Positions 35,911-59,165 are shown, counted from the first letter of the stretch. The stretch is 64,000 nt of DNA from Burkholderiales bacterium (GCA_023701005.1 JAMPXW010000002.1:45347-109346); one strand, 5' to 3'. The notes: generated from the letters alone by a model not told the origin. A program made the numbers and translations.

Positions 35911-36774
35911 TTATATCCCTTCCTTTTTAAGTTCTTCTAGAAGTTCTCGGGCTTTTTTGGAAATCTTAGTAGGTATCTTGATATTTATTTTTATATACAA
36001 ATCCCCCGTCTTGCCATTCTTAATAGCCTCGCCATACCCAGACATTTTTAAAGTTTGTCCATTCTGTATACCAGCTGGAACATTTATAGACACTTCTTCT
36101 TCCTGACGCAAGACTCCTTTGCCTTTACAATTTTCACATTTTTCTTTTGGAACAGAACCAGAACCTAAACATTCTTCGCAGATTCTTGTATTAGATATAT
36201 TTCCTAAAATCGTCCTTTTTATTTCGCGAATTTTTCCTTGACCATTACAATACCTACAAGTATCCATCTTTGTACCTGGCTTAGCGCCTGAATTATGACA
36301 AACAGAACAGCTCGAAGTCTTGGTGATTGCTAATTTCCTTGTCACACCTAAAACAGAATCAGACAAAGTTATTTGTATTTCTGTACTTATATCTCGTCCG
36401 CGTCTTTGTTTTACTCCACCACCTCCTCTGTTTCCTGTAAAAAAATCACTAAAAATATCATTCAAATTGCCAAAATCAAAATCACCTCCCTGGAATCCTC
36501 CAGAAAAACCACCAAAATCAAAACCTTCAAAGCCACCACGCCCTCCATAGCCCTGATTCATATTTTCAAAACCAGCCCCAAATTGATCATATTTTGCTCG
36601 TTTTCCGTCATCAGAAAGAACTTGGTAAGCTTCATTTACTTCTTTAAATTTCTTTTCATCCCCTTCTTTTTTGTCAGGATGATATTTATGAGCCAATTTA
36701 TAAAAGGCTTTTTTTATTTCGTCTTTAGATGCATTCTTAGCAACACCTAAAATGTCATAATAATCTTTATTCAT
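35911..36774 (-). CDS. dnaJ: Chaperone DnaJ, short form (287 aa; J-domain, G/F region, CxxCxGxG zinc fingers; lacks most of CTD-II and the dimerisation tail)
   Basis: '[33 protein letters not shown]'. G/F-rich '[21 protein letters not shown]'. Four CxxC(x)GxG motifs. The protein ends soon after 'GDLYIKINI'. Confidence 0.85.
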
Positions 36775-36790
36775 AAGGTTTATATAGCCA

Positions 36791-38260
36791 TTATATCATA
36801 GGTTCCGCTTCTTGAGAAGTTGTATTTTTTGAGCTTTCTTCTGCTAAAGATCCTTTACCTTTTCCTTCAATGATTGCTTTTTCTTCCGCGCTTCTTATGA
36901 TAGTAGCTTCTTCTTCTGCAATAAGTTTCTGAGCATCATCTTTTGAAATAGAATATTTCCTACGAGAAGCTTCTATTATTTCTTTGCGATAAGAAGGATG
37001 TGTAGGGGGCAAAACTCTTAATGTTTCAGCAGAAAATGGATCATAAGATTCACCATCAATCGTCATTTTAATATAAAATTCAGCTACAGCTAAATTAATC
37101 ATATCTTTAACTCCGAAAAGTGGTTCAAATTCTGGTTTTAATTTTACTGCATCTTCTCCACCAACTCTAAAACAAATTATACTTCCCGTGTTTCCAAGCA
37201 CAGCATGTTGAACTTGGGGTAATAATTGTCCTATATATTGATGAGCAATGGTTAAGTTCAGTGCATATTTTCTAGCCTCTGACAAAATGTTTTCAAAAGT
37301 ATGTGTGACTATGTTTTGAAACTCATCTATGTATAAATAAAAATCTCTACGATCTTTTTCTGGTATTGCTGCTCTTTCCATTCCAGCTTGTTTTATTTTT
37401 GTTAAGAACATTGAACCAAAGAAACTTGAATTTTCTTCTCCAATGCGTCCTTTTGAAAGATTAATAAAAATAATTTTACCTTCATTCATTAATTTACTAA
37501 TATCAATTTTATTTTGCTTTTGTCCAAATATATTTCGTAGAAGTGGATCAGACAAAAACTGTCCCAATTTGTTAACAAGAGGAATGATAGCATCTGTATC
37601 GAACTTTTCAGACCAATCAGCAAATTCGATAGCGAAGAATCTTTTAACCATGTCGTCAGTAATATATTCGACTACTTTCTGTCTATAATTTCTATCAGTC
37701 AACATCGATATCATTCCACGCATTGTGGCATGAGGATAATCCAAAAGTGCCAAACAAGTAAAACGAAAAACGTGTTCAAGGCGTGGTGTCCAGTTTGCCC
37801 CGAATTGTTTTTGCAAAACCTCAATCAAGCCTTGGGTCAATTGAAATTTGAAAAGCGGATCGACGTTGGCAAGAGGGTTGAAAGAAGCTGGAAAATCTAC
37901 ATCTCCAGGGTCAATAACACAAACATCTTCTATTCTCTCTTTTGGAATATAATCCAGCATCGCGTCGATAACATCTCCGTGTGGATCAATAAGACAAAGG
38001 CCATGATTGTATGTGACGTCTTGGCGAATAAACAATTCCATTAATTTAGTTTTACCAACACCAGACTTACCAACAATATACAAATGTCTTCTTCTATCTA
38101 TTCTTTTTAGACCAAAAATAAATTTCTTTTCTTCAAGTGAAGCTACATAATTTGTACGCCCGATGAAAGAAACCTCTTCGGGATCTACTTTTCCAAAAAC
38201 AGGAAGTTCTGGTGGAGGTGGCCCATATTTTATTATTTGCACTCGATTTGGCTTCGGCAT
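36791..38260 (-). CDS. VirD4/TraD/HerA-like P-loop ATPase (coupling-protein-like, no TM anchor), copy 1 (489 aa)
   Basis: Walker A '[14 protein letters not shown]'. 'LIDPHGD'. Walker B '[10 protein letters not shown]'. 'LNLTIAHQY'. Paralogous to the 42501..44579 protein. Confidence 0.8.
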
Positions 38261-38323
38261 ATATAGCTTAATATTACTACTAATTTATTGATTATTCAAT
38301 GGTAAAAGTATATTATAATAAAC

Positions 38324-39040
38324 ATGAAAATACATAGATTTATAGATAAATTTGATTTTTCAAAAAATAAAATAGAAATAACAAACCCTGAAATAATCAA
38401 CCAAATAAAGCTTGTTTTAAGGCTAAAAAAGGGAGAAATTATAATTTTATCTGACGGTAAAGGTAAAAGTATAGAAGTAACCCTAGATACAATAAATCCA
38501 AATAAAATTATATGTATTCCAAACAAAGGAAACTCTACTGTAAAGAATGATACTGAAAATAAAAAAGTAAATTTATATTTAGCTATATTGAAAAAAGAAA
38601 ATTTTGAATTATCTGTACAGAAAGCAGTAGAAGTCGGTGTATCAAAAATAATACCTGTAATAACAGAAAGAACTATTAAAACGGGTTTAAATGTAATTCG
38701 TTTAGAAAAAATAATCAAAGAAGCTAGTGAACAATGCGGAAGAGATATATTACCTACACTATCTAATATCTCTAAATTTGAAGACGCCCTAAAAGATGGA
38801 GAAAATTCTGAAGAGAAAATTATTTTTCATATAGACAAAAATATTAATAACAATTTCTATACTCCAAATAAAAAAGCAAAAACTTCAAGCATTTTTATAG
38901 GACCAGAAGGTGGTTTTACGGAGAATGAAATAAAACTAGCTAAAAATTTAAATTATAAAATCAGTTCTCTTGGCTCTCTAACCTTGCGTGGAGAAACAGC
39001 CGCCATAGTAGCTACTTATCGTGCAGTCGAAGGAATTTAA
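38324..39040 (+). CDS. rsmE: 16S rRNA (uracil1498-N3)-methyltransferase RsmE
   Basis: C-terminal SPOUT block 'FIGPEGGFTENEIKLAKNLNYKISSLGSLTLRGETAAIVA'. Confidence 0.8.
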   Translation: MKIHRFIDKFDFSKNKIEITNPEIINQIKLVLRLKKGEIIILSDGKGKSIEVTLDTINPNKIICIPNKGNSTVKNDTENKKVNLYLAILKKENFELSVQKAVEVGVSKIIPVITERTIKTGLNVIRLEKIIKEASEQCGRDILPTLSNISKFEDALKDGENSEEKIIFHIDKNINNNFYTPNKKAKTSSIFIGPEGGFTENEIKLAKNLNYKISSLGSLTLRGETAAIVATYRAVEGI

Positions 39041-40740
39041 TAGACCTCTTTGTTATAACAATTTTCACAATATACTATTTCAGGTCTGTCAGGGGCGTAA
39101 GAAGTTTCAAATTCATTATTACAACCTTCTTTCATGCATTTACGATGCCAGAGGTTACGTGGATTTCTCAACATAAATCTATCAGTACGACGACAAGCAA
39201 AACATTTTTCAGGTATGGGTAAATTTAATATTTTATATAAAGATAATTCTAAAGAAGTAATTTTAAAAGCTGTCGTGCATAGAGGATATTCATCTTTATA
39301 ATCATTTAATTTTTGAGATGAACATTGTATTGCTTCTTCTAAAATATTTTCTTTAATTTCTGAAAAAGTTTTGGGTATTTTTTCTGCAGGGATAAAAATC
39401 TTGTAATCTCTTTCTGGTCTATCGTACCATTTATAGCCCTTTCTTTTAGCTTCTTCTTTATTTAAAGGAAAATAATCTTGAGCCATAGATTCATTGTATG
39501 CAAATGGTGAAAAATTAGCTGGAAAATATTCACCCCACTCTTCTATGTCTATCATATGTTTGATTATTTTTTCTTTTAAAGAAAAATAATCTGATTTAGA
39601 ATATTGTTTATTTAAAATACAATAACTTTTTTTCTTTAAGCCAAAACATCCAAAACAATTTTCTACACCAAAACACATATCACAATAATACGAATCAGTA
39701 ATGGTACCAAAACAACTTCTAATAATCATAGATCTATGTGGTGCTTCAACACCTTGAGCTTCATAAGCTAGCTGTCCAGTAATTATTTCTGTACAATCGC
39801 GGCAATCTTCAGAATCCCATGCATCTTGCATATAAGCAGTATCTTTATTTTTATGACAATTAAAACCAAGTTTCATTCTTTGAGTATTTTCTATATAATC
39901 ACCATTAGACTGTTGAACTTGTACACCATGATAAAATTTTATAGGCATGCTAAGTCTTAATTTAAAAGCTTCTTCTTGTGATTTTTTTATAAAATCTCTA
40001 TCCCATTCAAAATTTTTAACTTTTTTTTCATATTCATCTTTTCCTATATTTTTATTAAAATAAAAATACTGTTTATTTCGAAGACCAACACAACCGAAAC
40101 AATCAGTGCATCCCTTGCAATCATTAGAAAAATAGACATTAACACAGTCAGAACAATCAGAAGACCAAAGACAATGAGAACACTTTTTAATATTAATACA
40201 CTCATAACAGTATTCGCTCTTTTCTGCTAAATAACAATCACTTAAAAAATAACAGCCCCACTGACACCAGCTTCCATACATACATTTTTCATTTGAACCA
40301 CTTGTAACAAGCATATAACAATCTTTATTGTTTTGAGATTGATTTGTATATTCGCTATTTACACTACTAGCATTAACCATAGCCAAATGTGGGACTATAT
40401 CGCGCAACTCTTCGTATTGTTCAAAAAAAGATTTATTAAAATCAAAATCTCTTCCATATTTTACAGCATCAAATTTATCTGATTTCCAATATTCTTGTTT
40501 ATAAACAGGGAAAGAAACATTTTCTCTGTAAATTGAAATTATACTTTCTCCAGTAGCATCACATTTTCTTTTATAAAAGTTATATTCATTTCTATCTAAA
40601 AGCCTACGAATATATCTGCATTCCGGGCAAAATGTCGGTGGAGGGACTTTTATTTTCTCATAAAAAGAGAAGTCATCAGGCTCTATAATAAAGTCACATT
40701 TGCAATTTTTACATATTTTGTTTTCACTTTTGTATTCCAT
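39037..40740 (-). CDS. Cys-rich zinc-ribbon paralog family protein, copy D (567 aa)
   Basis: 'CKNCKCDFIIEPDDFSFYEKIKVPPPTFCPECR' ... 'CVGLRNKQYFYFNKNIGKDEYEK' ... 'LWHRKCMKEGCNNEFETSYAPDRPEIVYCENCYNKEVY'. Confidence 0.85.
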   Translation of the reverse strand: MEYKSENKICKNCKCDFIIEPDDFSFYEKIKVPPPTFCPECRYIRRLLDRNEYNFYKRKCDATGESIISIYRENVSFPVYKQEYWKSDKFDAVKYGRDFDFNKSFFEQYEELRDIVPHLAMVNASSVNSEYTNQSQNNKDCYMLVTSGSNEKCMYGSWCQWGCYFLSDCYLAEKSEYCYECINIKKCSHCLWSSDCSDCVNVYFSNDCKGCTDCFGCVGLRNKQYFYFNKNIGKDEYEKKVKNFEWDRDFIKKSQEEAFKLRLSMPIKFYHGVQVQQSNGDYIENTQRMKLGFNCHKNKDTAYMQDAWDSEDCRDCTEIITGQLAYEAQGVEAPHRSMIIRSCFGTITDSYYCDMCFGVENCFGCFGLKKKSYCILNKQYSKSDYFSLKEKIIKHMIDIEEWGEYFPANFSPFAYNESMAQDYFPLNKEEAKRKGYKWYDRPERDYKIFIPAEKIPKTFSEIKENILEEAIQCSSQKLNDYKDEYPLCTTAFKITSLELSLYKILNLPIPEKCFACRRTDRFMLRNPRNLWHRKCMKEGCNNEFETSYAPDRPEIVYCENCYNKEVY

Positions 40741-40742
40741 GT

Positions 40743-42497
40743 TTAATACACTTCTTTATTATAACAATTTTCACAATATACTATTTCAGGTCTGTCGGGA
40801 GCGTAAGGCGTTTTGAAAGTAGCCAAACATTTACCTTGATGTCCATGACCCTCATTTTCACACATACATTCTCTACGCCAAAGTTTCATTGGATTACGTT
40901 TCTTCAACCTATTCTCATGACGACAATTAAAACAAAATCTCGGTAAAGGAACTCCTAATTTTCTATATAAATTAAATTCATCTAAGATTATTTTATAAGC
41001 TCCCCTACAATATCCACTTTCTGTATCTTTATTTTTACAACCAATAATTTCATTCAAAATTGATTCATCAACATCTCTTAAATCATCAGGCAAATCTACT
41101 GATTCAATAGTCGTCACATATTCACTCACCTTCTTGTCTCTCCACCTATAACCATTTTTTATAGCTTCTTCTTTATTTAAAGGAAAATAATCTTGAGCTT
41201 GAGTTTCGTTGTAACAAAAAGTAGACATTTCTGCAGGGAAAAATTCACCATATTTATAAATTAGACCCCTCTTGTCTATATATGGCATATCGTTCATGTG
41301 TTGTTTTATTTTTGGTATTAATTCTTCATATTCTTCTTTTGTGTATTGTTTATTTAAAATACAATATTTCTTCGTTCGAAGACCTATACATCCAAATATA
41401 TTGTCACAACCATGACAATTGAAAGAATATTCTACATTATTAGAACTATAAACAACACTAGTAAATAAATTACGAAAATTCCCTATTCCTGTATCAAAAG
41501 ACTCATACAATAATTCACCATCTCCAACTCCGGGGCCAGAATCATATGCATCTTTTAAGAAATAAGCTGCCCAATGAATAAATTTACAATCTTCTATTCT
41601 ATTTCCAACTGCATCAAAAGAATATCTACAATTTTTTACACCTTCTAAATTATCCCCCGTTGAATTCATTACTTTATTTTGGTTTGAAAAACGATGCAAA
41701 GATTTTGAATGAATTTCTTTAAATTTTTCTTTCAATTCTTCAACAACTTTATAACTTTTTAAATTTATTTCTGACAATCGGCTTAAATATTCATCCCTAG
41801 AAAGTTGCTCATTCCACATACAATACGATTTATTACGTAAATTTGTGCAACCAAAACAATTTATACAACCATGACAATCATATAGAAAATAAGAATCTAC
41901 ACAACTTTTACAATTGGTAGAGTACAAAGTCTGATAACAATCTGAACAAAATAAGTTTTCATAACAGAGTTCACATCTGTGTGCTACATAAACATCTGAG
42001 CATTCTTTTGTCATTGTTATTCTATTAGAATATAAAGTCCTATCTATTTGCCATGAACCAGAACACAAATAACTATCTTTGCTGCCCTCCGCCACATTAC
42101 AATAATCACTATTAGTGGCTTTTATATTAGAAAGACTTTGTAATGGAATTTTATCTCTCAATTCTTTCCATTGTGTAAAAAATGTTTTAGAAAAATCATA
42201 TTCTTTTCCAAAAGAAACTGCATTCCATTCATCTCCCCACCAATACTTACTATCACAAACGACAACCTCTTCAGAAGGATGAATAAAAGAAACAAGCATC
42301 TCGTTGTGACCTGGAGCATCACATTTTCTTTTAAATAGAGACATTTCATTTCTCCAGCACAGCCTTCTAATAGTCCTACATTCTGGGCAAAATGTCGGAG
42401 GAGGAACCTTTATTTTTTCATAAAATTTAAAATCTTCTGGCTTTAATACAAAGTCTATTTTACAATTCTGGCAAATAATTTTGACTTCGTTTTCCAT
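40743..42497 (-). CDS. Cys-rich zinc-ribbon paralog family protein, copy E (584 aa)
   Basis: 'CQNCKIDFVLKPEDFKFYEKIKVPPPTFCPECR' ... 'CTNLRNKSYCMWNEQLSRDEY' ... 'CIGLRTKKYCILNKQYTKEEYEEL' ... 'PEIVYCENCYNKEVY'. Confidence 0.85.
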   Translation of the reverse strand: MENEVKIICQNCKIDFVLKPEDFKFYEKIKVPPPTFCPECRTIRRLCWRNEMSLFKRKCDAPGHNEMLVSFIHPSEEVVVCDSKYWWGDEWNAVSFGKEYDFSKTFFTQWKELRDKIPLQSLSNIKATNSDYCNVAEGSKDSYLCSGSWQIDRTLYSNRITMTKECSDVYVAHRCELCYENLFCSDCYQTLYSTNCKSCVDSYFLYDCHGCINCFGCTNLRNKSYCMWNEQLSRDEYLSRLSEINLKSYKVVEELKEKFKEIHSKSLHRFSNQNKVMNSTGDNLEGVKNCRYSFDAVGNRIEDCKFIHWAAYFLKDAYDSGPGVGDGELLYESFDTGIGNFRNLFTSVVYSSNNVEYSFNCHGCDNIFGCIGLRTKKYCILNKQYTKEEYEELIPKIKQHMNDMPYIDKRGLIYKYGEFFPAEMSTFCYNETQAQDYFPLNKEEAIKNGYRWRDKKVSEYVTTIESVDLPDDLRDVDESILNEIIGCKNKDTESGYCRGAYKIILDEFNLYRKLGVPLPRFCFNCRHENRLKKRNPMKLWRRECMCENEGHGHQGKCLATFKTPYAPDRPEIVYCENCYNKEVY

Positions 42498-42500: not shown

Positions 42501-44579
42501 TTATTCCAAAATCTTTTTTAAAACATCTTCAGAAACTTCTTTTGTCTCAGTTTTAGGAATATTTTTTACTAAATCATCAAGATTAGAAGGCTCAGGAACT
42601 TTTTCTTCAGAAATTTTGACTTCTTCTTTAATTACTTTATCAGATATAAAATTCTTTAATTTATTCATTTCATCTACACTGGCTGATCTGTCTTTTGTGG
42701 ATGTTGGATGAGTATTTGATTGAGTATTTTTTAATTCACTTAAAGATATCTGTTTTACTTGTACTGGTTTTTCTTTTACTATCTCCTTTTTTATAGCCTC
42801 TGGTTCTTTTTTAGCTAAAGTCTTGTCTAATATTTCTCTTAAAGCTAAATTCTCTTTTGGTTTTTCTTTTGTAAATACCTTCTTAAAAGCAGAAAATATT
42901 TTTGGCTTTACCGGAATAAATGGTTTCTGAATATTGGGCACATTAACATTTTTGATTTCTGCTTCATTGTGTATATTTTTATCTATCCTTTCTGGATACC
43001 TTTCAGCACTATTATTCATTCCATCTTTTTGTTTAAATTCTATACCCAGATCAGCCAATGGTTTATAAAATTTAGATTCATCTTGTTTTATTTGATTTAA
43101 TGAACCTTTTATAGGTTTAACTTCTCCTGATTTTATCTTTGCTATACAATCTCTACAATAGACAGCTCTACCTGCTTCTGGTTTAAAAGGAACAAAAGTA
43201 TCTTTTTTACAAACAGAACATTGTGCGGGAAATTTCTCTACTCCAAGGCCATTGGTATCATCACCCAAAGACATTCCACTCCAATTGTTTATTTCTCTTT
43301 CTACGACTTCTCTCGATCTACAATAAAGTTCACGTGATGATTTGATAACTTCCTCTTCGACTTCTTTATTACCAGATTTTGCCATAGGAGGTAAGGTTTT
43401 TGCCGAAAAAGGACGAGATGTTATACCGTCAATCATTAATTTCAAATAAATTTTAAAGTTAGGCAAACTGACAATATCTTGAGGTGTAAATTCTGGTTCA
43501 AATTCTTTTTCTAAAAATTCTGCATCGTCAGCACCTACTCTAAATATAATCATCGTTCCAACGTTACCAAAAATAGAATCTCTCACACTTGAATTTTTGT
43601 CTGAAACTAATTGTGCAGTATACTGATGCGCCACAGTAAGATTCAATCTGTATTTTCTAGCTTCAGATAATATAGAAGCGAAAGAATCTGTAACGAAATT
43701 TTGGAATTCGTCGACATATAAATAAAAATCTTTTCTTTCATCTTCGGGTATACGGACACGTTCCATGGCAGCAAGTTGAATTTTAGTGATGAGCATACCT
43801 CCCAACAAAGAAGAGTTATCTTCACCGATACGTCCCTTAGAAACATTCACAAGGAATATCTTCCCTTCGTTCATTATGTCAAAGACATTTATTGTACTTT
43901 TTGATTGCCCAACGACATTTCTTATGATTGAAGTAGACAAGAATTGTCCAACTTTATTTTGTATAGGAGCAATAGCTTCATTTCTAAACTTATCTTGCCA
44001 AGCTTCATATTCATGAACCCAAAAAGATTTGATGACTGGATCTTTTAAATTAGAAATTATTTTCTGACGATAGTCTTTATCTACCAACATTCTAGGAATA
44101 CCGAGCATTGTGGTGCCTGGAGTATCAAGTAAAGCCAAAATGGCATTATTCAAAATATATTCCATCCTGGCAGACCAAGCATTGGCCCATATCTTCGTAA
44201 AGATCCCCATAAGTCCAGACGCCACTAAGTGTTTATATTTTGGATCAACTAATTCAAGAACATTAAATCCAATATGATAATCAGGGTCACTAGGATTAAA
44301 ATAGACAACATCTTTCATTCGATGAGGAGGAATAGCACCTAAAACACTTTCGACTAATTCTCCATGCGGGTCGACAACACAAACACCAGAACCATTTTCA
44401 ATATTCTGAACTATCATATTAAACATCAATACAGACTTACCTGTACCAGATTTTCCAAGTATATAAACATGCTGACGTCTATCTTTGCGTTTTATGCCAA
44501 AAAGCTGATTTTTATCTCTATAAGTAGTGAGCCCAATGTATGTAAGATCCTTATTTTTTGGTATCTCTTTGATATCCAT
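42501..44579 (-). CDS. VirD4/TraD/HerA-like P-loop ATPase, copy 2 (692 aa), with a C-terminal zinc ribbon and a K/E-rich low-complexity tail
   Basis: Walker A 'YILGKSGTGKSVLM'. 'VVDPHGE'. Walker B 'FYLYVDEFQN'. 'LNLTVAHQY'. C-terminal 'CSVCKKDTFVPFKPEAGRAVYCRDC', then a K/E/P-rich tail. Confidence 0.8.
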   Translation of the reverse strand: MDIKEIPKNKDLTYIGLTTYRDKNQLFGIKRKDRRQHVYILGKSGTGKSVLMFNMIVQNIENGSGVCVVDPHGELVESVLGAIPPHRMKDVVYFNPSDPDYHIGFNVLELVDPKYKHLVASGLMGIFTKIWANAWSARMEYILNNAILALLDTPGTTMLGIPRMLVDKDYRQKIISNLKDPVIKSFWVHEYEAWQDKFRNEAIAPIQNKVGQFLSTSIIRNVVGQSKSTINVFDIMNEGKIFLVNVSKGRIGEDNSSLLGGMLITKIQLAAMERVRIPEDERKDFYLYVDEFQNFVTDSFASILSEARKYRLNLTVAHQYTAQLVSDKNSSVRDSIFGNVGTMIIFRVGADDAEFLEKEFEPEFTPQDIVSLPNFKIYLKLMIDGITSRPFSAKTLPPMAKSGNKEVEEEVIKSSRELYCRSREVVEREINNWSGMSLGDDTNGLGVEKFPAQCSVCKKDTFVPFKPEAGRAVYCRDCIAKIKSGEVKPIKGSLNQIKQDESKFYKPLADLGIEFKQKDGMNNSAERYPERIDKNIHNEAEIKNVNVPNIQKPFIPVKPKIFSAFKKVFTKEKPKENLALREILDKTLAKKEPEAIKKEIVKEKPVQVKQISLSELKNTQSNTHPTSTKDRSASVDEMNKLKNFISDKVIKEEVKISEEKVPEPSNLDDLVKNIPKTETKEVSEDVLKKILE

Positions 44580-46945: not shown

Positions 46946-47025
46946 ATTTTATTTTAGAAACAATGAACTTTACTTTTTTATAATACTATTTAATTTAAAT
47001 TAAGTCAATATCTTAAATAATTAAC

Positions 47026-47057: not shown

Positions 47058-47092
47058 TCTTCACCTACAAAATAAGTCTAAGGAGGCTATGT

Positions 47093-49117: not shown

Positions 49118-49630
49118 ATGTCAAGCAAACAAGAATATTCCAATAAAATACTTAAAATATTAGCTGAAAAACCAGCTGTACCTTTAGAGGCAATAAAGGA
49201 AAATAAGGATTCAAAGACAGGATATGCCCTTAATCGTTCAATAAAAAATCTTATAGAGTCTGGCTGTATCGAAATATTAAAATCAGATAATAGAGATTAT
49301 CTCAAATTAACAAAAAAAGGTAAAAATAAATTGAATTCTTTAAAACTTGAGGCCGATGGAGTACTAGTCTCTACTCATTGGGATGGATTATGGAGAATAA
49401 TTATTCTAGATATCCCAGAACAAAGAAAAAGTGAGCGAGAGGCTTTGAGATACCTACTAAAAAAAGCAAATTTCGTTTGTGTAAAAAACACTGTATGGAT
49501 ATCCCCTTTCCCTTATGAAAATCTTTTCACTAATATTAAAAAAGATTTAAACTTAGGCACAGAATTAATGATAATCGTCACAAATAAATTAGACGAAGAA
49601 ACAGCAAAAGCATTTAAATCAAGTTTTTAA
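49118..49630 (+). CDS. PaaX-like winged-helix transcriptional regulator (170 aa)
   Basis: 'HWDGLWRIIILDIPEQRKSEREALRYLLKKANFVCVKNTVWISPFP' fits the PaaX C-domain pattern WdGxW..V...iPE..R..R..LR..L...gF..l...vWisP. The N-terminus is wHTH-like. Confidence 0.55.
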   Translation: MSSKQEYSNKILKILAEKPAVPLEAIKENKDSKTGYALNRSIKNLIESGCIEILKSDNRDYLKLTKKGKNKLNSLKLEADGVLVSTHWDGLWRIIILDIPEQRKSEREALRYLLKKANFVCVKNTVWISPFPYENLFTNIKKDLNLGTELMIIVTNKLDEETAKAFKSSF

Positions 49631-51455: not shown

Positions 51456-51492
51456 CCACTTTTCCCGGGCACCTGGTGTCCGGGAAAAGTGG
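51456..51492. other. GC-rich near-perfect 18-bp hairpin (CCACTTTTCCCGGGCACC-t-GGTGTCCGGGAAAAGTGG) between paralog copy G and the ABC exporter gene
   Basis: Seen in the sequence, with one mismatch. There is no flanking T-run on either strand, so it is not a canonical intrinsic terminator. Confidence 0.4.
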
Positions 51493-51532: not shown

Positions 51533-53275
51533 TTAATAAACTTCTTGTTGATAACAACGTTCACAATAGACTATTTCTTTTCTCTCGGGGGCATAAGAAG
51601 TCTCAAATTCATTATCACATCCCTCTTTCATGCATTTTCTTTTATATAATTTGATTCCATTTCGCATTTTTATGCGTTCGAAATGCCTACAATTAGGACA
51701 AAGTCTAGGAATTGGTATATTCATTCTTTTATAAAAAGAAAGTTCTGTCTCAGTTATTTTAAAAGCTTCTGTACAAGAACCATCACAATTCGATTCAAAA
51801 TGATTATTTTTACTATGATGTAAGCATTCAATGACCTTTCCTATTATACTAGAATCAATGCTTAAAATATCATCAGCTATATCTTCCTGTTTTATATCTA
51901 TTAAATAATTTCTTTTTTCTTCTTCTCTCCATTTATAACCCTTTTCTAAAATCTCACCTTTCATTAAAGGAAAATAATCCTGAGCCAAAGATTCATTGTA
52001 ACAAAAAGGAGACAAGTCAGATGGTAAAAACTCACCATATTTATAAATTACTCCTCTCTTATCTACATACGGAAGATCATTCATATGCTGTTTTATTTTT
52101 GGCAATAATTCTTCATATGCTTCTTTTGTATATTGTTTATTTAAAATACAATATTGTTTATTTCTAAGTCCAGAACAACCAAAAATGTTTGTACATCCAG
52201 TACAACTAAATGAATATTCACAATTTTGACAACCTTTGCTGCAACGATAGTTAAATTTATTATTAAAACAATCAGAACCTACAGAAGAACATTCATAACA
52301 TAATTCAGAATTCTCCCCCCATAAAGTACAATCATAACAATCTTTAAAATTTCGTGTAAAAAAAACTTGTATATATTTACTATCTTCTCCCCCAATTACA
52401 TAATAACTTTGATGAACATTTTTAGAATTATTTATGTATTCACCAGAAACATTATTATTATATCGACCTTCTAAAAATTTTCTTATATTTTTATTTAAAA
52501 TAATATCAGTCTTCCGCTTTGTTTTTTCTAATGCTTCATAAGAACCTAAATTGAAATCCCTAATAAATTTTTCATACTCTCCCTTAGAATATTGTTTATT
52601 AAAAACAAAATACTGCTTATTTCTTAAATTAGTACAACCAAAACAAGAATTACAACCAATTAAATCTCTGGAAAACCACACATCCATGCAGTTTTCACAG
52701 TGAGAAGAAAATAAAGTTCTATAACATTTAGTAAGGGCAAAGGATTGATAACATAATTCAGATGATTCAATTCTAGTTACATCTATTGAATTTTTTGTTC
52801 TATTAATTTCAGCACTATACATTGAATCTTCTGAAATCGCTGCAACAAACACTAAATAACAATTTTTTAAATCATGAGCCCCACTACAATAATCGCTGTT
52901 AACCATATCCCAAGAAGTTTGGCTAGGAATAGGAACATCTAAAAATAATTCTTTTAATTGGATAAAAAAATTTTTATTAAAGTCATATTCTCTACCATAA
53001 TCCAAGCTATTTAATTCATCAGACCACCAAATATCTCTCTCCCAAACTTTAAAGGGTGATTCTTGTGGAACGATAGAAAAAATAGTTTTTCCTGTTTTAT
53101 CACTTATTCTCTTATATAAAACACGATAATCACGAAAAGCCATTCTCCTAATCATCCTACACTCCGGGCAAAATGTAGGTGGAGGAACCTTTATTTTTTC
53201 ATAAAATTTAAAATCTTCTTGCTCGATTATGAAGTCTTTTTTACAATTCTGACATTGTCGGGTTTCGTTTTTCAT
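51533..53275 (-). CDS. Cys-rich zinc-ribbon paralog family protein, copy G (580 aa)
   Basis: 'CQNCKKDFIIEQEDFKFYEKIKVPPPTFCPECR' ... 'CTNLRNKQYFVFNKQYSKGEYEK' ... 'CSGLRNKQYCILNKQYTKEAYEEL' ... 'EIVYCERCYQQEVY'. Confidence 0.85.
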   Translation of the reverse strand: MKNETRQCQNCKKDFIIEQEDFKFYEKIKVPPPTFCPECRMIRRMAFRDYRVLYKRISDKTGKTIFSIVPQESPFKVWERDIWWSDELNSLDYGREYDFNKNFFIQLKELFLDVPIPSQTSWDMVNSDYCSGAHDLKNCYLVFVAAISEDSMYSAEINRTKNSIDVTRIESSELCYQSFALTKCYRTLFSSHCENCMDVWFSRDLIGCNSCFGCTNLRNKQYFVFNKQYSKGEYEKFIRDFNLGSYEALEKTKRKTDIILNKNIRKFLEGRYNNNVSGEYINNSKNVHQSYYVIGGEDSKYIQVFFTRNFKDCYDCTLWGENSELCYECSSVGSDCFNNKFNYRCSKGCQNCEYSFSCTGCTNIFGCSGLRNKQYCILNKQYTKEAYEELLPKIKQHMNDLPYVDKRGVIYKYGEFLPSDLSPFCYNESLAQDYFPLMKGEILEKGYKWREEEKRNYLIDIKQEDIADDILSIDSSIIGKVIECLHHSKNNHFESNCDGSCTEAFKITETELSFYKRMNIPIPRLCPNCRHFERIKMRNGIKLYKRKCMKEGCDNEFETSYAPERKEIVYCERCYQQEVY

Positions 53276-53276
53276 A

Positions 53277-54974
53277 TTAATAAACTTCTTGCTGATAACA
53301 CTTCTCGCAATAAACTATCTCAGGGCGTTCGGGGGCATAAGAAGTCTCAAATTCGTTATCACATCCCTCTTTCATGCATTTCCTATGCCAAAGCTTCATT
53401 GGGTTTTTAAGACTAAGCCTCATTTTATATCTTTCATCTTGATGAATTCTAGGTAATGGAATATCCATACGACGATAAAATTCTAATTCAAAAGGAGTAA
53501 TTTTAAAAGCTTTTTTTGTTATCAAACATTCTATAACTTCATTTAGAATAGAATGATCTACATCTTTTATATCATCTGGAATTTCTTCAGCTTTTTTTGT
53601 TATCACATATTTATTGTCGATCTTCTCTTTATATGAATATCCATTTTTTAATATTTCTTCTTTTGTAAGCAAAAAATGATCATTTGCAACTGTTTCATTA
53701 TATCCAAATGGAGAAAACTCAAAAGGAAAAAATTCACCATATTTATAAATATTACCAATACTATCTATGTAAGGCATCTCATCCATTTGTTTTTTTATTT
53801 TTCCTACTAATTCAAAGTATTCTTCCTTTGTATATTCTTTATTTAAAATACAATATTCTTTATTTCTTAAACCAACACAACCGAAAATATAACTAGAAGA
53901 TCCACAATAATCACTATATTCAACATGGCTTAAAGCTGGATAACCAGTAGTTATAAATTTTAAATTTTGACTATTTGTTGCACCACCAGAACTAAACTCA
54001 TAGACCAATTCTCCACTTAAATGACAAGTATCCATTACATCTTTTGAATTAACATCCCTATATGTATATTTTGAATTTTCAGTACCATAAGAATTAAAAA
54101 TGAAATTAGAAGATTTACAATTTCTTATATCATCCCCTTTTGAATTTATACAATTTGTTGTTCTAGCATATTTTCTTGGAAATTTTAATGAAAAATCCCA
54201 AAATTTATCAAAATTTTCTTTAAAAAATTTATAACTTCCAATATTTAAATTTTTTATTTTTTCAAAATATTCGTCTTTATCATATTCTTTATTCCAAATA
54301 CAATATTTTTTATTTCGTAAATTTACACAACCAAAACAATTCTGACAATTGACACAATCTAAAACGAAATTGGAATCAATACACGAAGAAGACCAATAAC
54401 AATATTTACAATTATAATTTTTTGTACATCCAATATTTTGATATATTAATTCACTTTCAGTTATATTATAAGAATCTACTACTAATTTTGAATTATCGAT
54501 ATTGCTTGAATAATAAACATTTTCTGAGCCAAATATAACAGAATATGAGAGATAAGCATTTTTTGCACCATCAACAAAATTAGCATATTCTACATTCAAA
54601 CAATTGCCAACTTGCCTAATAGCTGGACGAGGCACCTTATTAAACAATTCTCTCCATTGCACAAAAAAAGATTTTTTAAAATCATATTCTTGACTATATT
54701 TTAATGAATCCCAATCATCACTTTTCCAACATTCTGCACAATATACTGGGAAAACAACATTGGCATCATATACTGCAATTATTTTCTTATTACATAGGTC
54801 ACAACTGCGTTTATATAGAGAGCGCTCATTTCTCCAAATTAATCTACGAACAAGTCGACACTCCGGGCAAAATGTAGGTGGAGGAACCTTTATTTTTTCA
54901 TAAAATTTAAAATCTTCTTGCTCTATCTGAAAGTCTTTTTTACAATTCTGACATTGTCTTATCTCATTTTTCAT
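53277..54974 (-). CDS. Cys-rich zinc-ribbon paralog family protein, copy H (565 aa)
   Basis: 'CQNCKKDFQIEQEDFKFYEKIKVPPPTFCPECR' ... 'CVNLRNKKYCIWNKEYDKDEY' ... 'CVGLRNKEYCILNKEYTKEEYFEL' ... 'LWHRKCMKEGCDNEFETSYAPERPEIVYCEKCYQQEVY'. It lies 1 nt from copy G. Confidence 0.85.
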   Translation of the reverse strand: MKNEIRQCQNCKKDFQIEQEDFKFYEKIKVPPPTFCPECRLVRRLIWRNERSLYKRSCDLCNKKIIAVYDANVVFPVYCAECWKSDDWDSLKYSQEYDFKKSFFVQWRELFNKVPRPAIRQVGNCLNVEYANFVDGAKNAYLSYSVIFGSENVYYSSNIDNSKLVVDSYNITESELIYQNIGCTKNYNCKYCYWSSSCIDSNFVLDCVNCQNCFGCVNLRNKKYCIWNKEYDKDEYFEKIKNLNIGSYKFFKENFDKFWDFSLKFPRKYARTTNCINSKGDDIRNCKSSNFIFNSYGTENSKYTYRDVNSKDVMDTCHLSGELVYEFSSGGATNSQNLKFITTGYPALSHVEYSDYCGSSSYIFGCVGLRNKEYCILNKEYTKEEYFELVGKIKKQMDEMPYIDSIGNIYKYGEFFPFEFSPFGYNETVANDHFLLTKEEILKNGYSYKEKIDNKYVITKKAEEIPDDIKDVDHSILNEVIECLITKKAFKITPFELEFYRRMDIPLPRIHQDERYKMRLSLKNPMKLWHRKCMKEGCDNEFETSYAPERPEIVYCEKCYQQEVY

Positions 54975-55087: not shown

Positions 55088-56869
55088 TTATATAAATTCT
55101 GCTTGATAACATTTTTCACAATATACTATTTCTTTTCTCTCGTCACTTATCGCTGTTTTAAATTCATTCTGACATGGGTTATCTCCATGGTCATGTTTTA
55201 TTGTATTTTTATATTCTTTATTACTTGATTCTACACCATTACACATACATTTTCTATACCAAAGTTTGGGTGGATTCTTTATCTTTAAACGCTCTCCGTA
55301 ACGACAATTTGGGCACAATCTTGAAAGAGCTACTTTCATTTGTCGATGAAAAGATAACTCATTTGGTAAAATACGAAATGCATTTGTGCATTGTTGATTA
55401 CATTCTCCTTTATGTGCGCACTCAAAAACCTCATTTAATATATCATCAGACACAATATCTATATCATCTGGCATGTCTTCTGATTTTTTGGTTATTTTAT
55501 AATCTCTTTCTTTTTCATCATACCATTTAAAACCTTTCTTAATTGCTTCTTCTTTCGTCAATGGAAAATAATTTTGAGCCTGCGTCTCATTATAAGACCA
55601 AGAGGATAATTCATAAGGAAAAAATTCTCCGTATTTATATACTCTTCCTTTACTATCTATATATGGCATATCATTCATATGCTTTGTTATCTTAAAGACT
55701 AGCTCTTCATATTCTTCTTTTGTGTATTGTTTATTCAAAATACAATAAGATTTATTTCTTAATTTAGTACAACCAAAAAGATTATTACAAAAATAAACTC
55801 TATCGGAATAAATGATATCTGTTGATTCATTACAACCACGACTTAAAAAACATCTTTGCGAATGTTCAACCCCATTAACTTCATATAATAAATTCGAAAC
55901 GTCTCCTCCAAAAGTAACATCAATACTATCTTTTAAGAGCAAACCTCCTAAAAAAATAAATTTACAATCTTCTACTCCTCTTAAAACAGAAAAACAATTC
56001 TTACAATTCTTAGTATTTTGAATATCATCACCAGATATATTTACAGAATTTTTTATATAAGCAAATTTCCTTGGAATTTGATAATAAAATTTCCAAAACT
56101 CTTCTTTTGCTTTTTGTAAAATCTTGTAATTACCCAAGTTCCATCTTTCTATCTCTTTTTTATATTCTTCTTTTGTATATTGTTTGTTAAAAATACAATA
56201 TTTTTGATTTCTTAAGTTCACACAACCGAAACAGTTAGAACAACCTACACAATTAAAAAGAAAGGCTGAATCAATACATTCATCTGAAAAATAAATAAAT
56301 TTTGTATTATATCCAGAATTAGAATTCAAATTTTCGTATACATGATCTACATTTAAAACACCATCCGAATCTATTGAATCCTTAGAAAAAACAGGAACCT
56401 GGCAATTATAACAATTTATAGATTCATACCCATCAAAACAAAGTACACAATTTTTAGATCGTGTGTTCCCATTAGAATAGAAACAGTCAATAGACCCTTT
56501 TTGAAAAATCGACTGAAAAGGTACAACCTTTAATAAGTCTTTAAATTGTTCAAAAAATGACCTAGAGAAATCATAATCCCTGCCATAATCCGTAGCATCC
56601 CAAGAATCTTTCCACCAACAATCTGAACAATAAACTAAAAAAGAATTTTCCTTGTTATATATACTTATTATTTCTTTTTTACAACTATCACAATTTATTT
56701 TATACAGAGATCTATTCTCTCTATAACATAAACGTCTCACGAGTCTGCACTCTGGACACCAAGTTGGCGGAGGGACTTTTATTTTTTCATAAAATTTAAA
56801 ATCTTCTGGCTCGATTATGAAGTCTTGTTTACAATTTTGGCATATCTTGTTTTCACTTTTATATTCCAT
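55088..56869 (-). CDS. Cys-rich zinc-ribbon paralog family protein, copy I (593 aa)
   Basis: 'CQNCKQDFIIEPEDFKFYEKIKVPPPTWCPECR' ... 'CVNLRNQKYCIFNKQYTKEEYKKE' ... 'CTKLRNKSYCILNKQYTKEEYEEL'. There is a C-terminal insertion before 'EIVYCEKCYQAEFI'. Confidence 0.85.
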   Translation of the reverse strand: MEYKSENKICQNCKQDFIIEPEDFKFYEKIKVPPPTWCPECRLVRRLCYRENRSLYKINCDSCKKEIISIYNKENSFLVYCSDCWWKDSWDATDYGRDYDFSRSFFEQFKDLLKVVPFQSIFQKGSIDCFYSNGNTRSKNCVLCFDGYESINCYNCQVPVFSKDSIDSDGVLNVDHVYENLNSNSGYNTKFIYFSDECIDSAFLFNCVGCSNCFGCVNLRNQKYCIFNKQYTKEEYKKEIERWNLGNYKILQKAKEEFWKFYYQIPRKFAYIKNSVNISGDDIQNTKNCKNCFSVLRGVEDCKFIFLGGLLLKDSIDVTFGGDVSNLLYEVNGVEHSQRCFLSRGCNESTDIIYSDRVYFCNNLFGCTKLRNKSYCILNKQYTKEEYEELVFKITKHMNDMPYIDSKGRVYKYGEFFPYELSSWSYNETQAQNYFPLTKEEAIKKGFKWYDEKERDYKITKKSEDMPDDIDIVSDDILNEVFECAHKGECNQQCTNAFRILPNELSFHRQMKVALSRLCPNCRYGERLKIKNPPKLWYRKCMCNGVESSNKEYKNTIKHDHGDNPCQNEFKTAISDERKEIVYCEKCYQAEFI

Positions 56870-56914
56870 AATTTTTTCTTAACACTTTTGGACGACCGTC
56901 TGAACCTGATAACA

Positions 56915-58597
56915 TCAATTTATGTTTTGTTTATAACATTCTTCACAAGCAATTTTCTTGTAATTCCACTCTGGTAAATAATAAGCCTTTCTATCTTTTT
57001 TACAATAACAACAAACATAATCATATGATTGAAGTACCGTTAGAGTCTTCAGGCTTTCTTTGATTCGTACATCAAAATGATATCTAGGAAGTGGGATTCC
57101 ATTTTCTCTGTAAAAAGAAAGTTCATTTCTGGCAATATTAAAACGCCAACCAGTCAAAGGACATATTAAAGCTTGGGTAATAATAGTATCGGGAACATCT
57201 TTTATATCATCAGGTAATTTGTCTGTGCTCATTCCTTCGATATTGCTTTCATTTATATCTTCCCAATAACCACCAAATTTTAAAATATCTTCTTTTTTAG
57301 TATCTGGAAAATATGTAAAACTAGTAGAAAAATTAAAAGGCCCAGCGCTCATAGAATATGGTAAAAATTTACCATACTCTCCTCTTTTTTTCATATCAGA
57401 AATTATTTTATTTTTTAGTTCTTCGTATTCAACTTTTCCATATTTTTTATTTAAAATACAATATTTTTTCTTTTTTAAACCCACACAACCAAAACAATAT
57501 TCACATTCAATACATAGATCTAAATATTCAGAGTATCTAGAAGACGACCAAGAAGAATATTTCAAAGCATAACCATTAACACAGCAACTACAGTTACCTA
57601 ATAATTCAGTATACCAACAACCATCTGCATCAATATCTGATTTATGTCTCATTCCTCTAATACAATTGAAACAATCTTCTGATTCACTGATCGTATTGCA
57701 ATTATGACAATTTTTACAATCTAAAAGATAATCACCGTCAGAATCATATATTTTAAGGTTAAAATTAAGCCTATGAACAACTTCATCTTCCATAATTTCC
57801 TCAAAACGTTTTTTAAAAGATTGAATGGCTTGATATGAACCTAAATTATAAGATTTTATTTTTTCTAGATATTCTTCCCTGCTATATTCTACATTTTCGA
57901 TACAATAAGATTTGCCTCTTAAATTCCAGCACATAAAACAATTTTGACAATTTCGACAGTCATAAAGAAAATAAGAATCGATACAATCACGAGAATGTTT
58001 TGAATAAAATAACTTATAAGAATGATGGCACTCTGCAGAGTCGTAACATTTTTCTGAATTATAACAAATAGCTACATCAATAGAATTTTTAACTTTCAAA
58101 TTCCTGTATGAATACATTAAATCTTCACATTCTTCCATTGATCGTGCTAAATAACAATTTTTAGAATTCCAAACATCATCACAATAATCGCAATTAGTGT
58201 TCTTTATACCATTCTGGTGTGGACGAGGAACTTTTTTTTGAAGTTTTTGTAATTGTTCAAAAAATGGTTTATTTTCATCATAATCTTGACCATAATTCAT
58301 AGCATCCCATTTATCGCTATACCATTCTGTAGATGTATAAATAGGGTAACGATTTTTCTCTGGTAATACTGTAATCAAATTCTCTCCAGATAAATCTGAC
58401 TTACCTTTGCGAAATTTTCCAAACATCCAAAAAGATAGATGTTGTTTTATACGACAAAAATTACAAATAGTTGGTAATTCTATATCAACTTTTTTATACA
58501 AAGAAAGTTCTCCATCCGTAATGGTAAATTCATTTTTGCAGTGCTCACATTCTCTATTTCTCTGTAATCGATTCTGATTCATTATATTCAAAAACAT
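56915..58597 (-). CDS. Cys-rich zinc-ribbon paralog family protein, copy J (560 aa), the most divergent member
   Basis: 'CEHCKNEFTITDGELSLYKKVDIELPTICNFCR' ... 'CWNLRGKSYCIENVEYSREEYLEK' ... 'CVGLKKKKYCILNKKYGKVEYEEL' ... C-terminal 'ACEECYKQNIN'. Its start overlaps the end of grpE. Confidence 0.8.
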   Translation of the reverse strand: MFLNIMNQNRLQRNRECEHCKNEFTITDGELSLYKKVDIELPTICNFCRIKQHLSFWMFGKFRKGKSDLSGENLITVLPEKNRYPIYTSTEWYSDKWDAMNYGQDYDENKPFFEQLQKLQKKVPRPHQNGIKNTNCDYCDDVWNSKNCYLARSMEECEDLMYSYRNLKVKNSIDVAICYNSEKCYDSAECHHSYKLFYSKHSRDCIDSYFLYDCRNCQNCFMCWNLRGKSYCIENVEYSREEYLEKIKSYNLGSYQAIQSFKKRFEEIMEDEVVHRLNFNLKIYDSDGDYLLDCKNCHNCNTISESEDCFNCIRGMRHKSDIDADGCWYTELLGNCSCCVNGYALKYSSWSSSRYSEYLDLCIECEYCFGCVGLKKKKYCILNKKYGKVEYEELKNKIISDMKKRGEYGKFLPYSMSAGPFNFSTSFTYFPDTKKEDILKFGGYWEDINESNIEGMSTDKLPDDIKDVPDTIITQALICPLTGWRFNIARNELSFYRENGIPLPRYHFDVRIKESLKTLTVLQSYDYVCCYCKKDRKAYYLPEWNYKKIACEECYKQNIN

Positions 58598-59165
58598 TAA
58601 CCCTGGCAGCTCGTATTACTCTATCGCCTAATTTATATCCCTTTTGAATAACCTCAGATATTTTATGATTATTTTCTTTCACATCCGTCTTTGTCATATC
58701 GATAGACTGATGAATATTTGGGTCAAAATCTTCTCCTTCTTCCCCGACCTCTTTTACATCATATTCTTCAAATATTGTATTGAGTTGAGCATAAATATAT
58801 TCTACTCCTTTTCTCCAATTTTCATCCACCTTATTCCAAGATTCTTTATTTGCAAAGGCCATATTAAAACTATCTAATACCGTCAAAAATCTAGTGAGAA
58901 TGCGTTCACGTACTGATTCTGAGAAATTAGATCTTCTATCGTCTTCTTGTTTACGATAATTAACGAAGTCAGCTCTTTCTTTCTGCCAACCATTTAAATA
59001 TTCTTCTTTTTCTTTTTTGCAAATTTTTAAATCAGCTCTTAATTTCTTAATAGTTTTCTTTAAATCTTCTTCTCCATCTTCGTTAAATTCAAATTCAAGA
59101 ACTTCCGACTCAGTAGAGTCGTCCCGAGTAGAGTCGATAGATATTTCTTTTTCTTCATCTTTCAT
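58554..59165 (-). CDS. grpE: Nucleotide exchange factor GrpE
   Basis: 'ERADFVNYRKQ', 'ILTRFLTVLDSFNMA', 'DFDPNIHQSI' and 'QKGYKLGDRVIRAARVNVFEY' are the GrpE blocks. Confidence 0.8.
   Translation of the reverse strand: MKDEEKEISIDSTRDDSTESEVLEFEFNEDGEEDLKKTIKKLRADLKICKKEKEEYLNGWQKERADFVNYRKQEDDRRSNFSESVRERILTRFLTVLDSFNMAFANKESWNKVDENWRKGVEYIYAQLNTIFEEYDVKEVGEEGEDFDPNIHQSIDMTKTDVKENNHKISEVIQKGYKLGDRVIRAARVNVFEYNESESITEK

Follow-up and report, generated by a model that had tools for sequence, protein, structure and literature searches.

We analysed a stretch of 64,000 nucleotides of a metagenome-assembled genome labelled Burkholderiales bacterium (GCA_023701005.1 JAMPXW010000002.1:45347-109346), here called the window, in which the genes of the Hsp70 chaperone DnaK and its co-chaperones GrpE and DnaJ are interleaved with a module of two TrwB/VirD4-like ATPases and a family of cysteine-rich paralogs (PARs). 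Comparison with related loci shows that this arrangement goes back to one ancient merger of the Hsp70 gene set with the ATPase/PAR module, in the ancestor of a clade of Nomurabacteria-like Paceibacteria of the Candidate Phyla Radiation (CPR). The merger involved PAR paralogs that had already diverged; the backbone of the locus was then inherited vertically, and later variation was mostly differential loss. Within this clade a functional tie of the ATPase/PAR system to Hsp70 is plausible, judging from gene order and spacing. The best explanation as a whole, namely one merger, split transcription units and a working relation between motor, PARs and Hsp70, is in our view moderately probable.

Few bacteria of groundwater and soil are as abundant and as poorly understood as the Paceibacteria, almost none of which have been cultured. 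The locus gives their orphan VirD4-like motors a conserved genomic context, formed class-wide by the cysteine-rich family and in one clade by the Hsp70 co-chaperones, and turns an 'unknown ATPase' into testable hypotheses on partners, cargo and metal binding. Furthermore, it reveals a probable replacement of the HrcA/CIRCE switch (CIRCE, controlling inverted repeat of chaperone expression) at dnaK and a stepwise erosion of the client-binding domains of DnaJ.

Conserved order and single origin of the interleaved locus

The genes grpE, dnaK and dnaJ all lie on the minus strand and span 23,255 bp, and both Pfam and the coordinates agree with the spread over ~23 kb claimed by the original prediction (Table 1). 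Between the three Hsp70 genes lie seven PARs and the two ATPases, together with an ATP-binding cassette (ABC) exporter, a PnuC-like transporter, rsmE and a PaaX-like regulator. The coordinates also bear out the earlier placement of PARs J, I, H and G, the ABC exporter and the divergent PaaX-like gene between grpE and dnaK, that of PAR C, PAR B and a membrane protein downstream of dnaJ, and the spacing of exactly 16 nt between ATPase-1 and dnaJ. Between dnaK and dnaJ, what had been listed as module 1, rsmE and ATPase-1 was found as stated, but the list had omitted the PnuC-like gene.

Two samples of related loci were compared with the window, using gene maps made by tblastn with coverage and E-value thresholds. 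The PAR-anchored sample comprised 79 genome loci of Nomura-, Lipton-, Staskawicz-, Giovannoni- and Sungiibacteria and other Paceibacteria. The dnaK-anchored sample comprised 80 metagenome loci with DnaK closest to that of the window (79-94% identity); it avoids the bias of selecting on PARs, and its results describe only the clade whose DnaK shares 79% identity or more with that of the window. In the PAR-anchored sample, the families found most commonly near PARs were the ATPase (20 loci), dnaK (13), the PaaX-like gene (12) and dnaJ (11).

The same order recurred between loci: rplM-rpsI-grpE-[PARs, J-type first]-(ABC)-PaaX-like (opposite strand)-dnaK-[PAR]-ATPase2-[PARs]-(rsmE, opposite strand)-ATPase1-dnaJ-[PARs]-membrane protein-agmatinase. 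Its junctions were tight. In all seven genome loci rpsI was followed by grpE (7/7), and the gap between grpE and the adjoining PAR was -23 to +33 nt (7/7). An overlap of grpE with the J-type PAR (-23 to -2 nt) was seen in six of the seven other genomes; in the window the two genes share 44 nt, or 29 nt if translation starts at the second ATG. ATPase-1 and dnaJ were 10-87 nt apart in 9/9 loci. In the dnaK-anchored sample, an ATPase followed dnaK at a distance of up to 4.5 kb in 45 of the 47 informative loci, the PaaX-like gene was divergent and upstream of dnaK in 70 of 71, and grpE was found at most 10 kb upstream of dnaK in 31 of 35. Locus L042, the only one of the ATPase clade without an ATPase after dnaK, was considered as a true exception and rejected, as it has undergone a local rearrangement with unrelated genes.

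Eighteen loci were complete from grpE to dnaJ. Both ATPases were present in 17 of them, with no PAR between grpE and dnaJ in five and one to six PARs in the other 12. The eighteenth (L155) consists of grpE, the PaaX-like gene on the opposite strand, dnaK and dnaJ, with ATPase and PAR both missing. Hence, the two ATPases are the constant neighbours of the Hsp70 genes, and the PARs are the variable part. Copy number per PAR slot varied from 0 to 4 between genomes, rsmE occupied the same place in many loci, and no other locus that we saw was as expanded as the window (7 PARs, 23.3 kb).

A neighbour-joining tree of DnaK, rooted on the Liptonbacteria-like locus L163, placed every interleaved locus in a single clade. 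Its sister group consists of L024 (RAAC4_OD1_1), L155 and L156, in which dnaK is directly followed by dnaJ, and L163 itself has the order hrcA-grpE-dnaK-(one membrane gene)-dnaJ. These relatives uphold the premise that the three genes are normally adjacent. Because the interleaved loci form one clade, and sister group and outgroup keep dnaK beside dnaJ, we conclude that a single merger took place and not repeated insertion. The original prediction had offered repeated insertion into the heat-shock operon as one of two explanations; this one is not supported, as the tree indicates a single entry and the PARs are ancient, without recent duplication.

Repeated recent insertion or tandem amplification would imply a mobile or selfish expansion of PARs, with the heat-shock operon as a hot spot. 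The variable copy number per slot would suit such an expansion, and so would a stretch of 72 nt that is 90% identical at the 3' ends of PAR D (39036-39107) and PAR E (40742-40813), whose proteins are otherwise ~42% identical; this similarity may reflect local gene conversion between neighbours. However, PARs A-I are mutually only 41-52% identical at the protein level, and PAR J is 28-34% identical to the others. DNA identity among the copies was 60-75%, in conserved segments only, and neither recent DNA duplication nor long DNA repeats were found among them. The PARs are not recent duplicates, because the nearest match lay in another genome for 265 of 266 PARs, and usually in the same slot (J-type 32/42; rest of the grpE-to-dnaK interval 42/67; between the ATPases 61/92). 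PAR J, for instance, is 82% identical to its positional ortholog in L082, and PAR C 79% identical to the same-slot copy in L014. No transposase, integrase or flanking repeats were found in the locus, and the family is essentially missing from 2.9 million viral contigs, which gave one marginal match. Together with the single origin in the DnaK tree, these results largely refute recent expansion, which we consider scarcely tenable. Judged by their sequences, the PARs are instead ancient paralogs, with a copy number set mainly by differential retention and loss. A phage or mobile origin of the PARs was likewise rejected, given the single marginal viral match and the lack of long DNA repeats.

Outside the interleaved clade, the module was found in another setting. 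Seven loci anchored on DUF8128 (L161-L167), from Brenner-, Jorgensen- and Liptonbacteria-like genomes and others, all had the order secD-secF-(sigma70_r4/HARE-HTH)-DUF8128-c69-ATPase1-(CutA1)-PARs x1-5-(ATPase2), and the arrangement DUF8128-c69-ATPase1-(CutA)-PARs-(ATPase2) was also seen in L011, L036, L049 and L065. Here two membrane proteins, c31 (DUF8128, ~450 aa) and c69 (~175 aa, unannotated), precede the ATPase-1 type, and in L076 (3178-5550) and L038 (13059-15824) the ATPase carries a DUF8128-like domain as an N-terminal fusion. Since ATPase and PARs stand together in 7/7 DUF8128-anchored loci, their link is class-wide. By tblastn, DUF8128 and c69 were found neither in the window nor in the dnaK-anchored loci. 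The membrane protein after dnaK was tried as their counterpart and rejected, because it is PnuC-like by Pfam and tblastn with DUF8128 and c69 was negative. An anti-phage defence system was also rejected: PADLOC gave only generic HerA and mad8 P-loop matches, both for the ATPases, and none for PARs, DUF8128 or c69.

Some of these loci have Hsp70 genes close by. In L163 the intact operon, with a CIRCE-like site (749-775), lies directly upstream of secD; in L165 dnaJ lies ~5 kb upstream of the module; and in L065 dnaJ is found just upstream of DUF8128. This shows that the tendency of Hsp70 genes and module to lie near each other is older than the interleaved clade. According to the original prediction, the same modules at unrelated loci, with an intact grpE-dnaK-dnaJ operon and no expression coupling, would point to passive insertion. 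The DUF8128-anchored loci bear this out in part: five of the seven have no Hsp70 gene within 10 kb, and one of the seven (L163) has the intact operon.

CutA1 (divalent-ion tolerance) recurs directly after ATPase-1 in other orders (L162 13420-13725; L163 13485-13790; L164 13484-13798; L167 13499-13807; L033 3212-3532; L036 7662-7970). In the interleaved clade it lies just upstream of the PaaX-like gene and dnaK in L054, L095, L108, L122, L142 and others; it is not present in the window. The recurrence of CutA1 hints at a metal-related theme.

Probable transcription units and the putative dnaK regulator

The likely co-directional units of the locus, as judged from the sequence, are grpE-J-I-H-G, the ABC exporter, dnaK, pnuC-F-ATPase2-E-D and ATPase1-dnaJ-C-B-membrane protein. 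Within the fourth of these, the gaps between ATPase-2 and PAR E and between PAR E and PAR D are 3 and 2 nt, respectively. The PaaX-like gene and rsmE, on the opposite strand, break the region further. Promoter-like sites were found at dnaK (49124-49095 and 49061-49034), at grpE (59200-59172) and at the PnuC-like gene (47008-46980). The hairpin directly 3' of dnaK is a probable dnaK terminator, and the hairpin between PAR G and the ABC exporter probably terminates the grpE-PAR unit.

In this arrangement grpE would be translationally coupled to the J-type PAR, grpE would be co-transcribed with PARs, and dnaJ with ATPase-1. The two co-chaperones would then share mRNAs with the ATPase/PAR system, and DnaK would not. 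Because the units are split and have no common heat-shock operator, expression coupling, if any, would run through these shared co-chaperone mRNAs.

A perfect palindrome of 28-34 bp lies between the promoter-like sites and the start of dnaK. It is unique in the window, and none of 100 shuffles matched it (0/100). Its core (CAAGTATTT-N10-AAATACTTG) was found 5' of dnaK in 54-58 of 87 loci. In the related loci compared, the core was absent 5' of grpE and ATPase-1 and did not occur beyond chance 5' of PARs. An operator shared by PARs, ATPases and dnaK was rejected, since the palindrome occurs once in the window and, across 159 loci, is confined to dnaK; there is therefore no evidence of co-regulation of PARs or ATPases with dnaK. 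We regard the palindrome as a candidate dnaK-specific operator, which the divergent PaaX-like protein probably binds. This protein has only PaaX_M and a weak helix-turn-helix-like N-terminus, whereas full PaaX proteins (~280-310 aa) consist of an N-terminal winged helix, a central PaaX_M and a C-terminal PaaX_C domain, and it scored 30 bits against TIGR02277 (cut-off 265). The 170-aa regulator is PaaX_M-like and not a PaaX ortholog.

The locus shares with the hrcA-grpE-dnaK-dnaJ operon of Bacillus and Firmicutes the same three genes in the same order and orientation. As in operons under HrcA/CIRCE control, a palindrome is located between promoter and dnaK start, and L163 keeps hrcA, the CIRCE-like site and a contiguous operon. 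In contrast, the genes of the window are distributed over 23 kb in separate units. No hrcA was found among the open reading frames of the window, and the canonical CIRCE (TTAGCACTC-N9-GAGTGCTAA) was not found in it even with 4 mismatches. Instead, another palindrome (28 bp) and the PaaX_M-like divergent regulator are present, at dnaK only; grpE stands behind rplM-rpsI, and dnaJ stands behind an ATPase and lacks its C-terminal domain II. A new regulator/operator pair has probably replaced the HrcA/CIRCE switch at dnaK.

Motors, paralogs and chaperones: proposed function and rival readings

ATPase-1 and ATPase-2 are paralogs (45% identical), and the Walker A (GKSGVGKT) and Walker B (YIDEF) motifs are invariant in the ATPase alignment. 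Profiles of VirD4, TraD, TrwB and HerA match them weakly, far below the NCBIfam cut-offs, and ATPase-1 had no useful match in a sequence search of PDB. For the AlphaFold model of ATPase-1 (predicted local distance difference test, pLDDT, 65), the top Foldseek match in PDB was TrwB deltaN70 (E 7e-12, TM-score 0.50-0.59), followed by HerA and Cag-beta, with scores of HerA nearly equal to those of TrwB. At this pLDDT, the model suggests a helical region over residues 135-260. Both ATPases are soluble, with hydrophilic N-termini and without a transmembrane segment. In ATPase-2, the C-terminal 250 residues contain a CxxC-x17-CxxC finger (zf_Tbcl_2, PF23477, E 2e-10; TIGR04272 above cut-off), behind which comes a long tail of low complexity with many Lys, Glu and Pro residues; its equivalent in L165 also has a NUDIX domain. 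ATPase-1 is 79% identical to its L163 ortholog (11875-13317), where the DnaK proteins of the same pair are 59% identical. By this measure, ATPase-1 is under exceptional constraint across Paceibacteria orders, which is unusual for a VirD4-like protein.

The ATPases share with type IV coupling proteins (TrwB of R388, VirD4, Cag-beta) a P-loop nucleotide-binding domain of the FtsK/HerA type, into which, judging from the model, an all-helical domain may be inserted. They also share the Pfam matches TrwB_AAD_bind, T4SS-DNA_transf and TraG-D_C, with TrwB as the best structural match, and the position of a motor ATPase gene beside those of candidate cargo or adaptors and chaperones. Coupling proteins have chaperone or adaptor partners of their own, such as IcmS/W-LvgA for DotL and CagZ for Cag-beta (PDB 8dol). 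In contrast, the window ATPases have no N-terminal transmembrane segment, occur as two paralogs and are extremely conserved, and no VirB4, relaxase or other type IV secretion gene was found in the 64 kb of the window or among 167 related loci. In other orders, DUF8128 (separate or fused) and c69 provide the membrane anchor.

The coupling-protein passages of a study of Patescibacteria report 5,713 VirD4-like genes in 2,918 genomes, about two per genome, of which only 148 lie near virB4, and consider exaptation to another function possible (Microb Genom 2025, PMC12102498). The window ATPases are most probably the same genes as these orphan VirD4-like coupling-protein genes. The main text of that study never uses the word chaperone, and its coupling-protein passages do not mention Hsp70, DUF8128 or cysteine-rich paralogs as neighbours. 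In the literature searched, we found no published description of the Hsp70/ATPase association, of DUF8128 or of the PAR family.

The ten PAR genes of the window encode proteins of 560-593 aa, with 29-40 Cys and 9-15 CxxC motifs per copy. Identity is ~58% in the N- and C-terminal thirds and 31% in the middle. Each PAR has zinc-finger-like ends, helical linkers and a central beta-solenoid, and the AlphaFold model of PAR C reached a pLDDT of 86.6; signal peptides and acyltransferase motifs are lacking. An internal duplication is present in every copy, consisting of two CFGCxxLRNKxYCIxNKQY(T/S)KEEYE units ~150 residues apart (in PAR C at 34704-34790 and 35154-35240), each located where a beta-solenoid segment gives way to a helix. 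The family numbers 2,298 clusters at 50% identity (E <= 1e-30) and is uncharacterised, without a Pfam family or a solved relative. Searches of Pfam (E up to 10) and NCBIfam returned no family for the PARs, the sequence search of PDB gave only marginal LIM-domain noise, and Foldseek gave nothing in PDB at E < 0.1. The finger zf_Tbcl_2 was seen only as a sub-threshold match in copy A (E 0.017) and as precomputed matches in a few homologs. Known cysteine-rich beta-solenoids (insect antifreeze proteins 1m8n and 1ezg, ryegrass ice-binding protein 3ult, left-handed beta-helix acyltransferases) share the fold class only, with 2-7% identity, and the PARs differ in adding the zinc-finger-like ends and helical linkers.

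One alternative is that the PARs themselves act as Hsp70 co-chaperones or as holdases switched by redox state or zinc, comparable to Hsp33, Ruc or DnaJ-like zinc fingers, and that the ATPases are incidental. The PARs resemble Hsp33 and Ruc in being cysteine-rich, presumably zinc-binding and genetically associated with Hsp70, and Ruc of Mycobacterium tuberculosis is a zinc-Cys protein that reportedly cooperates with DnaK. The putative coupling of grpE to the J-type PAR and the loss of the DnaJ zinc finger in 8 related genomes would fit as well. However, the PARs track the ATPase and not Hsp70 class-wide, several Hsp70 loci have no PAR, and neither a J domain nor another known chaperone domain was found in the PARs with Pfam and NCBIfam. 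Moreover, they show no detected relation to Hsp33 or Ruc in sequence or fold, are five times larger, form many ancient paralogs, and are modelled as large ordered beta-solenoids, unlike the known small or disordered holdases. We consider this alternative quite improbable.

The chaperone proteins themselves differ in completeness. GrpE is near complete (PF01025 profile positions 4-163 of 165) and DnaK is full length (PF00012 profile positions 1-597 of 599). DnaJ of the window (287 aa) has a J domain (PF00226, E 1.7e-25), a Gly/Phe-rich stretch seen in the translation and a CxxCxGxG zinc finger (PF00684, E 3.4e-14). It lacks C-terminal domain II, which is present in relatives of 362-371 aa: DnaJ_C covers only profile positions 2-78 of 152, and TIGR02349 scores 288 bits (cut-off 377) over positions 1-272 of 354. 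Three discrete length classes of DnaJ were found in the interleaved clade, with 359-374 aa, ~287 aa (without domain II) and ~217 aa (without zinc finger and domain II), and all three have the same C-terminal tail; the loci include L014, L029, L043, L086, L087, L093, L108 and L142. Shortened DnaJ occurred only downstream of ATPase-1, in 12 of the 32 complete copies there, and the loss of substrate-binding domains was confined to the interleaved clade.

The second explanation of the original prediction, a functional tie to Hsp70, is plausible. The conserved backbone, the overlap of grpE with the J-type PAR and the short distance between ATPase-1 and dnaJ speak for it; the dispensability of the PARs and the private operator and terminator of dnaK speak against it. 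Its main rival is neutral hitch-hiking, in which one rearrangement put the module in the Hsp70 locus, and inheritance and operon inertia kept the order without any functional relation. We regard this as a real possibility, though a doubtful one.

Several points weigh against our best explanation, some of them in favour of hitch-hiking. The invariant partners of Hsp70 are the ATPases and not the PARs, which are wholly missing from the locus in L099, L100, L108, L115 and L122. The unrelated flanks (rplM-rpsI, membrane protein, agmatinase) are equally syntenic, and unrelated passengers (ABC exporter, PnuC, Fic, CutA, rsmE) occupy the same slots, so that the locus evidently tolerates insertions. 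The ancestral context of the module is secDF-sigma-like-DUF8128 and not Hsp70; in the five DUF8128-anchored loci with no Hsp70 gene in reach, it lies beside secDF. The dnaK gene terminates in a strong hairpin, and its operator and terminator are not common to the other units; the operator was not found 5' of grpE, ATPases or PARs, and shared heat-shock control is not visible. In genomes as compact as those of CPR bacteria, short distances between genes are normal, and inheritance alone, without selection, can preserve gene order within one clade. Furthermore, the DnaK tree carries no support values, and some metagenome loci are near-duplicates (e.g. L099/L100 and L112/L113).

Against hitch-hiking, the order was kept in 45 of 47 loci across a divergence that leaves only 60-76% identity in ribosomal proteins L13 and S9, and the grpE/PAR and ATPase-1/dnaJ junctions were never broken (7/7 and 9/9). 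Hsp70 genes lie near the module in different arrangements in L163, L165 and L065. Finally, the erosion of DnaJ downstream of ATPase-1 was seen in this clade only.

For the working relation we propose, tentatively, that the TrwB-like motors handle PARs with the help of Hsp70, a mechanism that as a whole we rate somewhat short of probable. The ATPases would form hexameric motors that serve as receptors or translocases of PAR proteins. In the interleaved clade, GrpE, DnaJ and DnaK would be co-produced to fold, hold or hand over the large, metal-rich PARs. Such a motor with Hsp70 would parallel type IV coupling proteins paired with dedicated chaperones or adaptors. A more far-reaching version is rather unlikely: the ATPases with GrpE, DnaK and DnaJ would form a new protein-handling machine, in which Hsp70 feeds or resets a hexameric motor of the coupling-protein type and PARs serve as its specific adaptors or cargo; in this clade the motor would have exchanged its DUF8128/c69 anchor for integration into the Hsp70 operon.

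Features of the window and further observations

Table 1. Positions of the interleaved Hsp70 locus and associated features, numbered from the first nucleotide of the window.
Feature	Position	Strand	Evidence or remark
grpE	58554-59165	-	Pfam GrpE PF01025, E 8.6e-38; head of unit grpE-PAR J-I-H-G
PAR J	56915-58597	-	divergent J-type; start overlaps 3' end of grpE
PAR I	55088-56869	-	PAR alignment; best matches in same slot of other genomes
PAR H	53277-54974	-	PAR alignment; best matches in same slot of other genomes
PAR G	51533-53275	-	PAR alignment; best matches in same slot of other genomes
Palindromic hairpin, 17-bp stem	51456-51492		between PAR G and ABC exporter
ABC exporter	49614-51395	-	Pfam ABC_membrane and ABC_tran (transmembrane and nucleotide-binding domains)
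PaaX_M-like putative regulator, 170 aa	49118-49630	+	Pfam PaaX_M, E 1e-18; divergent from dnaK
Perfect palindrome TTGCAAGTATTT-N10-AAATACTTGCAA	49056-49089		between dnaK promoter-like sites and dnaK start
dnaK	47093-48985	-	Pfam HSP70 PF00012, E 1.7e-244
Hairpin, 17-bp stem	47023-47059	-	directly 3' of dnaK
PnuC-like membrane protein (nicotinamide mononucleotide, NMN, transporter family)	46397-46945	-	Pfam NMN_transporter, E 1.7e-6
PAR F	44613-46301	-	PAR alignment
ATPase-2	42501-44579	-	Pfam TrwB_AAD_bind, DUF87, TraG-D_C, zf_Tbcl_2; NCBIfam TIGR04272
PAR E	40743-42497	-	PAR alignment
PAR D	39037-40740	-	PAR alignment
rsmE (16S rRNA methyltransferase)	38324-39040	+	Pfam Methyltrans_RNA, E 2.4e-39; divides the two ATPase units
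ATPase-1	36791-38260	-	Pfam and NCBIfam matches; Walker A and B motifs
dnaJ, 287 aa	35911-36774	-	Pfam DnaJ, DnaJ_CXXCXGXG, partial DnaJ_C
PAR C	34149-35867	-	PAR alignment; AlphaFold pLDDT 86.6
PAR B	32393-34108	-	PAR alignment
Conserved membrane protein ending the locus	31769-32359	-	no Pfam match; follows dnaJ or PAR in many loci
PAR A, tenth copy, outside the locus	11552-13270	-	between scpB and mraY

PAR A has counterparts elsewhere: a PAR also lies between scpB and mraY in L013, L053, L062 and L075, which makes this position a second conserved home of the family.

The window has a G+C content of ~30% and housekeeping genes typical of a CPR/Paceibacteria genome. All close homologs of its proteins (locus tags NDI62_019xx-020xx) are from Nomurabacteria, Paceibacterota or Parcubacteria. 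Because gene content, G+C content and every close homolog point to Paceibacteria, the NCBI label of the source contig is probably the result of mis-binning or mislabelling.

In a subclade (L081, L084, L086, L087, L115 and L121), the slot between the PARs and the PaaX-like gene again holds an ABC exporter. Both this exporter and the PnuC-like gene after dnaK are passengers without an obvious link to Hsp70 or the ATPase/PAR system. Upstream of grpE, the protein adenylyltransferase gene fic (59230-60414) is flanked by a perfect 31-nt direct repeat (59180-59210 and 60394-60424), which is a terminator-like hairpin. Since this repeat bounds fic and no related locus has the gene in its rpsI-grpE spacer, fic is a recent cassette insertion of 1.2 kb.

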